Shown: piece after piece, positions 12,815 to 13,831 of the stretch
How the letters are laid out: each line of letters starts with the position of its first letter
How positions within the stretch are numbered: position 1 is the first letter of the stretch
NCBI GenBank assembly: GCA_020353515.1
Contig: CP070695.1
Coordinates: 3,552,050 to 3,616,049, forward strand
Length of the DNA stretch: 64,000 nucleotides
Direction of reading: 5' to 3'
Source: Candidatus Heimdallarchaeota archaeon
GTDB taxonomy: Archaea > Asgardarchaeota > Heimdallarchaeia > Hodarchaeales > Hodarchaeaceae
The notes under the pieces: generated by a model
The model's database searches: none
Told to the model about the DNA's origin: nothing
What the model saw: only the letters and a program-made list of their open reading frames with translations
Program-made: the position numbers and the translations under genes

Positions 12815-13831
12815 TTAATGGAAATATTTCATATGGGCTCTATAACGAATTTCGCTGTCGAATTTTTTAGGACATAATTTACACCGATATTTAATACAAC
12901 TATTTTTCCTTTCATGAAGTCGAAGATCAACTAGACGATCGAATTTTTTCCCACACCTTGCGCATTTCAAATTCTGTTTTTTTTTAACTTTTTTTGCAAT
13001 TGGAGGAGGTGAAGAATCAAGTTTTTTCCTATAGATCCTATGTCTTAGTGAAAAAACATCAAAACTCTCTTTAAAAGATTGAGGGAGTATTTCCGTTCTG
13101 CCTAGAATCAGGAAACCGTTAGGAACCAACAAATTATCGAATTTTCTAAATATTTCCTTCTGAATCTCTTTAGAAAAATAAATTATCACGTTCCTACAAA
13201 AGATTATATTTAATTTTGGGAATCTATAGTTATCTTTCAATAAGTCTAGGTATGAATAATCCACCATTTTTCTGATATTATATTTTACTCTTTTTCCCTT
13301 TGCAAAAGGTTCAAAGTACTTCACTAGAAATTCCTTTGGAATATTTTCTAAGATTTCTCCCTCATAGATACCTCTTCTAGCTATCTGAAGAAGTTCATCA
13401 TTGAAATCTGTTGCGTAGATCTTCACATCATATTTTAGAAAATGATTACCTAGAGTATGATGGACAATAGAAGCAATACTATAGGATTCAGATCCTACAG
13501 CACAACCTGCACTCCAAATACGAAGAGAAGGAGATATTTCTCTTTCTTTGATTTCCTTTACATAGAAACTTAGTATTCTTTGAACTTCTTCCCATGTATC
13601 TGGGTCACGAAAATATTTGGTAACATTAATTGAAAGGCTCTTCTTAAGTAAGTTAATTTCCTTATCATTCTGGATTAGAATATCATAATAATCCTCATAT
13701 GTTTTACAATTATGACCCCTCATTCTAATAGCTAATCGGCGACTAATATATTTGTCTTTGTAAGAACTGATGTCACATCCCCTTTTATAGAGATATTGTT
13801 TGATTAAATTAAGTTGTTGATCAGGAAGCAT
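12815..13831 (-). CDS. cheR: CheR-type protein-glutamate O-methyltransferase with two C-terminal zinc fingers
   Basis: SINVTKYFRD, RIWSAGCAVGSESYSI, IYATD, IIFCRNVIIYF, LILGRTE; C-terminal CARC..H..C and CKLC..H..H. Confidence 0.9.
   Translation of the reverse strand: MLPDQQLNLIKQYLYKRGCDISSYKDKYISRRLAIRMRGHNCKTYEDYYDILIQNDKEINLLKKSLSINVTKYFRDPDTWEEVQRILSFYVKEIKEREISPSLRIWSAGCAVGSESYSIASIVHHTLGNHFLKYDVKIYATDFNDELLQIARRGIYEGEILENIPKEFLVKYFEPFAKGKRVKYNIRKMVDYSYLDLLKDNYRFPKLNIIFCRNVIIYFSKEIQKEIFRKFDNLLVPNGFLILGRTEILPQSFKESFDVFSLRHRIYRKKLDSSPPPIAKKVKKKQNLKCARCGKKFDRLVDLRLHERKNSCIKYRCKLCPKKFDSEIRYRAHMKYFH

Follow-up and report, generated by a model that had tools for sequence, protein, structure and literature searches.

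The window analysed here is a stretch of 64 kb (G000:C1:3552050-3616049) on the closed 4.94-Mb chromosome of an Asgard archaeon, and positions are counted within it unless a contig is named. At 12815..13831 on the minus strand it encodes a 338-aa protein, here called CheR-ZnF. The gene (338 codons plus stop) is the sole long frame at the locus in the list of open reading frames, and its start and end are common to orthologs at 65–84% identity. It lies among housekeeping genes, its neighbours encoding a rhodanese, MalQ, a CMD-family protein and an RNA methyltransferase. The CMD-family gene (AhpD-like, Pfam PF02627; 14027..14374, plus strand) is divergently transcribed and is given for context only. 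It adjoins type-i/ii orthologs of CheR-ZnF in seven genomes and on one metagenome contig, down to 48% identity, accompanied in some cases by the rhodanese gene, and the 195-bp divergent intergenic region between the two genes is conserved in seven genomes. Long-range synteny is also conserved around the type-i/ii orthologs. As the adjacency sits inside this general synteny of housekeeping genes, no functional link to the CMD-family neighbour was drawn.

CheR-ZnF starts with an all-alpha CheR_N domain (residues 6–55; 13667..13816, minus strand), which matches Pfam PF03705 with 42 bits (E 5.5e-11, cut-off 27), aligns to the N-domain of Salmonella CheR and carries arginines R31, R32, R36 and R38 in helix alpha2. 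The SAM-binding CheR methyltransferase domain with its beta-subdomain (residues 69–264; 13040..13627, minus strand) matches PF01739 with 170 bits (E 3.9e-50, cut-off 27). A basic, Pro-rich linker, SSPPPIAKKVKKKQ (residues 265–287; 12971..13039, minus strand), of variable yet basic sequence among relatives, leads to two zinc fingers. Finger 1 (residues 288–312; 12896..12970, minus strand) is a C2HC variant of the classical finger, C290-x2-C293-x3-F297-x5-L303-x2-H306-x5-C312, and finger 2 (residues 315–338; 12818..12889, minus strand) is of the C2H2 type with H-x4-H, C317-x2-C320-x3-F324-x5-Y330-x2-H333-x4-H338. The latter fits the C-x2-4-C-x12-H-x3-5-H spacing and the F/L core exactly, and the former fits them with Cys as the fourth ligand. 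The zf-C2H2 family PF00096 was matched with 28.4 bits, above its gathering cut-off of 25.2, with the best stretch at residues 315–338. TPR families were absent among the Pfam matches up to E = 1.

An AlphaFold2 model built on a 29-sequence alignment (mean pLDDT 81.9, pTM 0.70) predicts the CheR_N helices at residues 5–65, the beta-subdomain strands at 173–194 and, behind a disordered linker (pLDDT <50 at residues 280–285), two beta-beta-alpha units at 288–308 and 315–337 (pLDDT 71–86), with the helix of finger 2 at 327–337. The top Foldseek match to the model was 5FTW (E 1e-18, TM 0.85 on target). The protein is thus a complete CheR fold followed by a flexible basic linker and two classical zinc fingers. 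The original prediction had described this architecture from the letters alone; the linker and finger patterns it quoted are exact, Pfam and AlphaFold2 agree with it, and the structure prediction it had proposed as a check yielded both finger units.

Canonical CheRs, such as those of Salmonella (1AF7/1BC5), B. subtilis (5FTW) and P. aeruginosa (CheR1, 5XLY), have the two-domain fold and the beta-subdomain in common with CheR-ZnF, at 28% identity. CheR-ZnF retains the equivalents of R98 and Y235 as well as the WSAGCAxGxEPYS loop and the CRNVxIYF motif. It differs from canonical CheRs in its 74-residue C-terminal linker and finger pair, in its location outside a che cluster, and in its score of 134 bits for the NCBIfam CheR equivalog NF007902 (enterobacterial CheR), which is below the cut-off of 435.

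Conservation, origin and distribution of the fusion

In the CheR part, all 29 sequences compared, down to 35% identity, share R36, R75, D142, R213 and Y218, and 26 of them also have Arg at the position of R32. R75 and Y218 align with R98 and Y235 of Salmonella CheR, its key catalytic residues (PMC3447774). The invariance of all catalytic residues argues for a working enzyme. The tail residues C290, F297, H306, C317, C320, H333 and H338 likewise do not vary among the 29 sequences, down to 35% identity, and K322 is invariant in the alignment. At the fourth ligand position of finger 1, 18 relatives have Cys and nine have His (H-x3-H). The finger-1 helix, DRLVDLRLHERK, is the same in the ten closest relatives, and the recognition helices are nearly invariant among orthologs. 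Tail identities of 73, 71 and 63% were obtained for orthologs that are 75, 72 and 66% identical over the whole protein, so the fingers are conserved to the same degree as the enzyme.

The tail alone matched the designed six-finger protein Aart with E 5.5e-11 and ZNF568 with E ~1e-7, and the family profile matched ZNF568 with E 8.9e-29. Together with the invariant residues and the predicted beta-beta-alpha units, these matches establish that the fingers are no chance pattern. The tail profile also matched Krueppel-type poly-finger proteins of Asgard archaea, at per-genome E values of 1e-10 to 1e-6, and the Asgard pool of Krueppel-type fingers is the most likely source of the tail. An expansion of C2H2 fingers in the host genome was considered and rejected, as a PF00096 search of that genome returned CheR-ZnF and one paralog remnant (see below) and no further C2H2 finger.

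Archaeal C2H2 fingers have been called poorly characterised, and Krueppel-type arrays are reported to be the part of Asgard TniQ proteins that binds DNA (preprint 10.1101/2025.07.27.667033). The fingers of CheR-ZnF are of the same type as those of the TniQ-C2H2 proteins of archaeal Tn7-like elements (10.1101/2025.07.27.667033) and of the Asgard poly-finger proteins encoded at loci L071–L074. Whereas those arrays comprise 7–8 fingers with TGEKP linkers, attached to TniQ or to an unassigned C-terminal domain, CheR-ZnF has two fingers, the first a C2HC finger, a four-residue spacer and an enzyme as fusion partner. Krueppel-type fingers are barely characterised in Asgard archaea, and CheR-ZnF shows them in a second enzymatic setting. 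The proteins at L071:1427-2578, L072:1371-2528 and L074:19-1443, of ~385–475 aa, have 7–8 Krueppel-type fingers with canonical HTGEKP linkers and a C-terminal domain of ~150 aa that returned no Pfam match; such proteins occur in genus g9 of family f4, in 19 of 25 genomes. The protein at L073:1316-3007 (minus strand; G160:C148) is 563 aa long and has seven C2H2 fingers joined by TGEKP linkers behind a Cys-rich N-terminal part, which by eye looks like the TniQ-C2H2 proteins described in the preprint on Asgard Tn7.

Among the 5.8 billion proteins searched, ~30 clusters (90% identity) covered the full query including the tail. All named ones are Asgard metagenome-assembled genomes, mostly labelled Hodarchaeales or Hodarchaeota, with single Thor-, Odin-, Hermod- and Promethearchaeota labels; the next matches were ordinary CheRs, with query coverage of at most ~80–90%. 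The 1.84 billion representatives at 50% identity were also searched exhaustively with a profile. Giant eukaryotic poly-finger proteins crowded part of the output, and only ~9 clusters matched over the full length, including a variant in which a long Lys/Arg linker precedes just one finger. A word-based search with the tail alone recovered close orthologs only. Other Asgard CheRs, the Lys/Arg-rich tails of which aligned to the finger region, proved fingerless on inspection. Full-length matches were present in 10 of the 22 genomes of one genus-level group, to which the host genome belongs, and nowhere else among 400 species genomes of the phylum. Our literature search for CheR with zinc fingers, or for C2H2 in archaea, returned nothing that describes a CheR–zinc finger fusion. 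The fusion is real, conserved, undescribed and confined to a small lineage; a widespread or already characterised fusion, named at the outset as an outcome that would overturn the original prediction, was not what we found.

In a tree built on the CheR domain only, with the tail columns dropped, 29 fused proteins and one truncated record formed one clade with a support of 99. This clade is nested in a group of Asgard CheRs that includes the two other CheRs of the host genome. Since the fused proteins form a single clade, multiple origins were rejected: the fusion had one origin, after which at least five subfamilies diverged. Two family members (P0020 and P0022) carry a degenerate second CheR_N copy at the N-terminus. 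The third CheR of the host genome (521 aa; G000:C1:4197823-4199388, plus strand) has two extra N-terminal repeats, which are CheR_N-like. Many Asgard CheRs of 460–520 aa (P0033-P0037, P0051, P0077) end in fingerless, Lys/Arg-rich C-terminal tails of ~200 aa with the shared motif LxELKNFR..FEERK..W, and basic extensions seem to be a general trait of CheRs in the lineage.

Chemotaxis genes and the CheD-associated sister subfamily

The original prediction had called CheR-ZnF an orphan, as it saw no gene for MCP, CheA, CheB or CheW in the 64 kb. This absence was confirmed, every match to these families lying outside the window, and within the window the term holds. It does not hold for the genome, which encodes three CheRs, four MCPsignal matches and one CheA. 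A che cluster at C1:3496800-3508850 comprises CheB, its own CheR, CheC, CheA, CheY, a protein with six CheW domains, CheW and a second CheB, and a cheC-cheD pair is located at 1.215 Mb. CheR-ZnF is not encoded within or next to the chemosensory cluster, which ends 43 kb ahead of the window start and 56 kb from the CheR-ZnF gene. CheR-ZnF is no orphan, given the full set of chemotaxis genes in the genome and the CheD gene that adjoins a sister subfamily.

A genome-wide check for chemoreceptors and archaellum genes had also been proposed, and its two halves turned out differently. Chemoreceptors are present; the methylation helices of the two full-length MCPs that we read are canonical (EE/QQ), and neither protein has a pentapeptide at its C-terminus. 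Searches of the closed genome for archaellin (PF01917), CheF (PF04283), Arch_fla_DE (PF04659) and FlhA of the bacterial flagellar export apparatus (PF00771) returned no match. The genome thus combines a complete Che pathway and three CheRs with no recognisable archaellum or flagellum.

MCP and CheW genes were found in 12 of the 22 related genomes. The fusion is present in 8 of these 12 che-positive genomes, four of which lack it, and in 2 of the 10 che-negative ones; as the genomes are related, these figures should be read as a simple count, not as a statistical test. The two che-negative carriers, G066 and G077, yielded no MCP, CheW, CheB or second CheR, and at 71% (1.4 Mb) and 80% (2.4 Mb) completeness they are the least complete assemblies among the carriers.

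The type-v subfamily is 35–38% identical to CheR-ZnF. In G066, G075, G068 and metagenome contig SDBT01002690, the type-v gene lies 22–29 bp downstream of a co-oriented gene for a CheD-like protein of 179–183 aa. These divergent CheD paralogs are encoded at L052:9052-9603, L053:4043-4594, L025 (G068:C97:756-1034) and L077:7424-7963. CheD is a receptor glutamine deamidase. The paralogs of the three genomes match CheD (PF03975) above the cut-off, with 32–40 bits, and the GSC and AH motifs are kept in the G066 and G075 copies, which are available in full length. The copy of SDBT01002690 was assigned by sequence comparison: it shares 49% identity with the proteins of G066 and G075, and the GSC and AH motifs recur in it. 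On this contig the flanks are unlike those of the other loci, and the cheD/type-v pair is only 43–49% identical to the others. The pair is a free-standing deamidase–methyltransferase pair outside che clusters, at four loci with two different flanks. Its conservation argues that the family still acts on receptor-type Gln/Glu sites. The pairing with CheD was found only in the type-v subfamily and not in CheR-ZnF's own subfamily.

Putative role of the finger tail

The 64 residues of the tail carry a net charge of +16; the CheR core is basic as well, as are the other CheRs of the lineage. Two of the four positions that canonically contact bases, +2 and +6, carry mostly hydrophobic residues in both recognition helices (V/I and L/I in one helix, I/V and A/V/I in the other). 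Such residues are unusual in base-reading fingers, so the partner might be a protein or RNA. No TGEKP-type linker connects the two fingers, as the spacer after C312 consists of four residues (IKYR); the relatives with H-x3-H have spacers of 8–10 residues with a loose likeness to TGEKP.

The conserved catalytic residues and helix alpha2 arginines, the mostly che-positive carriers and the pairing of type-v with CheD are evidence that leans towards retained receptor-type chemistry. We tentatively prefer the reading that CheR-ZnF is an accessory, catalytically competent protein-glutamate O-methyltransferase of the CheR family, found in one Asgard (Hodarchaeales-type) lineage, with the fingers as a putative tether. 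The enzyme would still methylate Glu/Gln methylation helices of the MCP type, belonging to the few chemoreceptors of the host or to a receptor-like protein, and would work beside the CheR of the che cluster. It is known that CheRs can acquire additional means of tethering, for example TPR repeats or the binding of a pentapeptide. The basic finger module may play the role of the pentapeptide tether or C-terminal TPR domain of other CheRs and may localise the enzyme on a polyanionic partner, which could be a nucleic acid or an acidic protein surface. Several findings count against this accessory role: the gene lies outside the che cluster among housekeeping neighbours, the NF007902 score is below its cut-off, no MCP, CheW, CheB or second CheR turned up in G066 and G077, and the CheD pairing is limited to type-v. 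Docking on chemoreceptors is not known for any zinc finger.

A close parallel to such an arrangement is offered by the CheR-TPR proteins (WspC, FrzF; PMC3447774), which likewise have conserved catalytic residues and a short C-terminal interaction module, often of two repeats, behind a variable linker, and which usually occur as one copy per genome besides plain CheRs (PMC3447774). CheR-ZnF differs in that its module is a C2H2/C2HC finger pair, no multidomain response regulator cluster is associated with it and its host is an archaeon. No description of a classical zinc-finger tether on a CheR was found in the literature searched.

The original prediction had instead proposed that the enzyme is retargeted, with the fingers binding DNA or RNA and bringing a glutamate methyltransferase to nucleic-acid-associated or other non-chemotaxis substrates. 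We consider this rather unlikely, although a number of findings speak for it: the fingers belong to the classical type that binds DNA, with matches to Aart and ZNF568, the tail is strongly basic, the single-finger family member has a long Lys/Arg linker, and TGEKP-linked Krueppel-type arrays occur in other Asgard proteins, being reported as DNA-binding in Asgard TniQ (10.1101/2025.07.27.667033). In addition, three CheRs stand against one CheA and four MCP matches in the genome, and G066 and G077 carry the gene with no other che gene found. The incompleteness of these two assemblies weakens the last point, however, and the features of receptor recognition are kept, while type-v pairs with CheD, a receptor-modification enzyme. 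The hydrophobic +2/+6 positions, and the presence of only two fingers with no TGEKP linker, further argue against retargeting. The specific proposal that C2H2 fingers deliver a glutamate carboxyl-methyltransferase to DNA- or RNA-bound proteins in an Asgard lineage likewise appears doubtful.

If the fingers do bind nucleic acid, a covalent modification of the receptor type would be linked to DNA or RNA. The Asgard archaeal lineage is often placed closest to eukaryotes, and the order of parts in CheR-ZnF parallels that of eukaryotic PRDM proteins, which combine a PR/SET methyltransferase with a C-terminal C2H2 array. Whereas PRDM proteins have a SET lysine methyltransferase, the catalytic domain of CheR-ZnF is a class I Rossmann CheR fold for carboxylates, and no homology is implied. 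Retargeting, if true, would mean that the 'methyltransferase plus zinc-finger array' mode of targeting chromatin enzymes has a precedent among prokaryotes, and that CheR-type enzymes have a new class of substrates. With its 63-residue tail and soluble enzyme, CheR-ZnF would offer an easy entry for biochemistry.

It is improbable that CheR-ZnF is a bifunctional regulator, in which the finger pair would bind specific DNA and control transcription, with the CheR domain mainly a sensor of SAM or of the receptor state that sequesters and releases the protein. The near-invariant recognition helices of the orthologs would fit one fixed target, and the conserved divergent intergenic region shared with the CMD-family gene is a further point in favour. 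Yet the general synteny can explain the conserved neighbourhood, no DNA motif was identified in our analysis, and the invariant catalytic residues argue for a working enzyme.

Paralog remnants and damaged copies

That the fusion is a decaying or functionless product of one lineage is very improbable: type-v is reduced to a 3' remnant in four genomes, an ortholog and a second copy elsewhere are damaged, and four che-positive genomes are without the fusion, but CheR-ZnF itself is intact and 65–84% identical to intact orthologs, and its catalytic and zinc-ligand residues are invariant across the 29 sequences.

The G075 ortholog (L046:8001-9023, G075:C120), which is 84% identical to CheR-ZnF, carries one in-frame TAA, and a second copy in G073 (L054:4777-5881, G073:C104) is broken over three frames; a pseudogene or an assembly error is possible in both cases. 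In the host genome, a 107-aa two-finger open reading frame at G000:C1:4698160-4698483 (minus strand) is the 3' remnant (residues 259–361, the last 103 codons) of a type-v paralog, the cheD gene and the catalytic part being gone. It occupies a slot between an Eco57I-like methylase gene and a gene for a YdjM-like membrane protein. Shorter type-v remnants with different breakpoints occupy the same slot in G071, G074 and G076 (remnant loci L070, L067, L068 and L069). The remnants are 59–82% identical to the intact G075 copy, and it is the 3' end of type-v, just upstream of the YdjM-like gene, that has been repeatedly retained.
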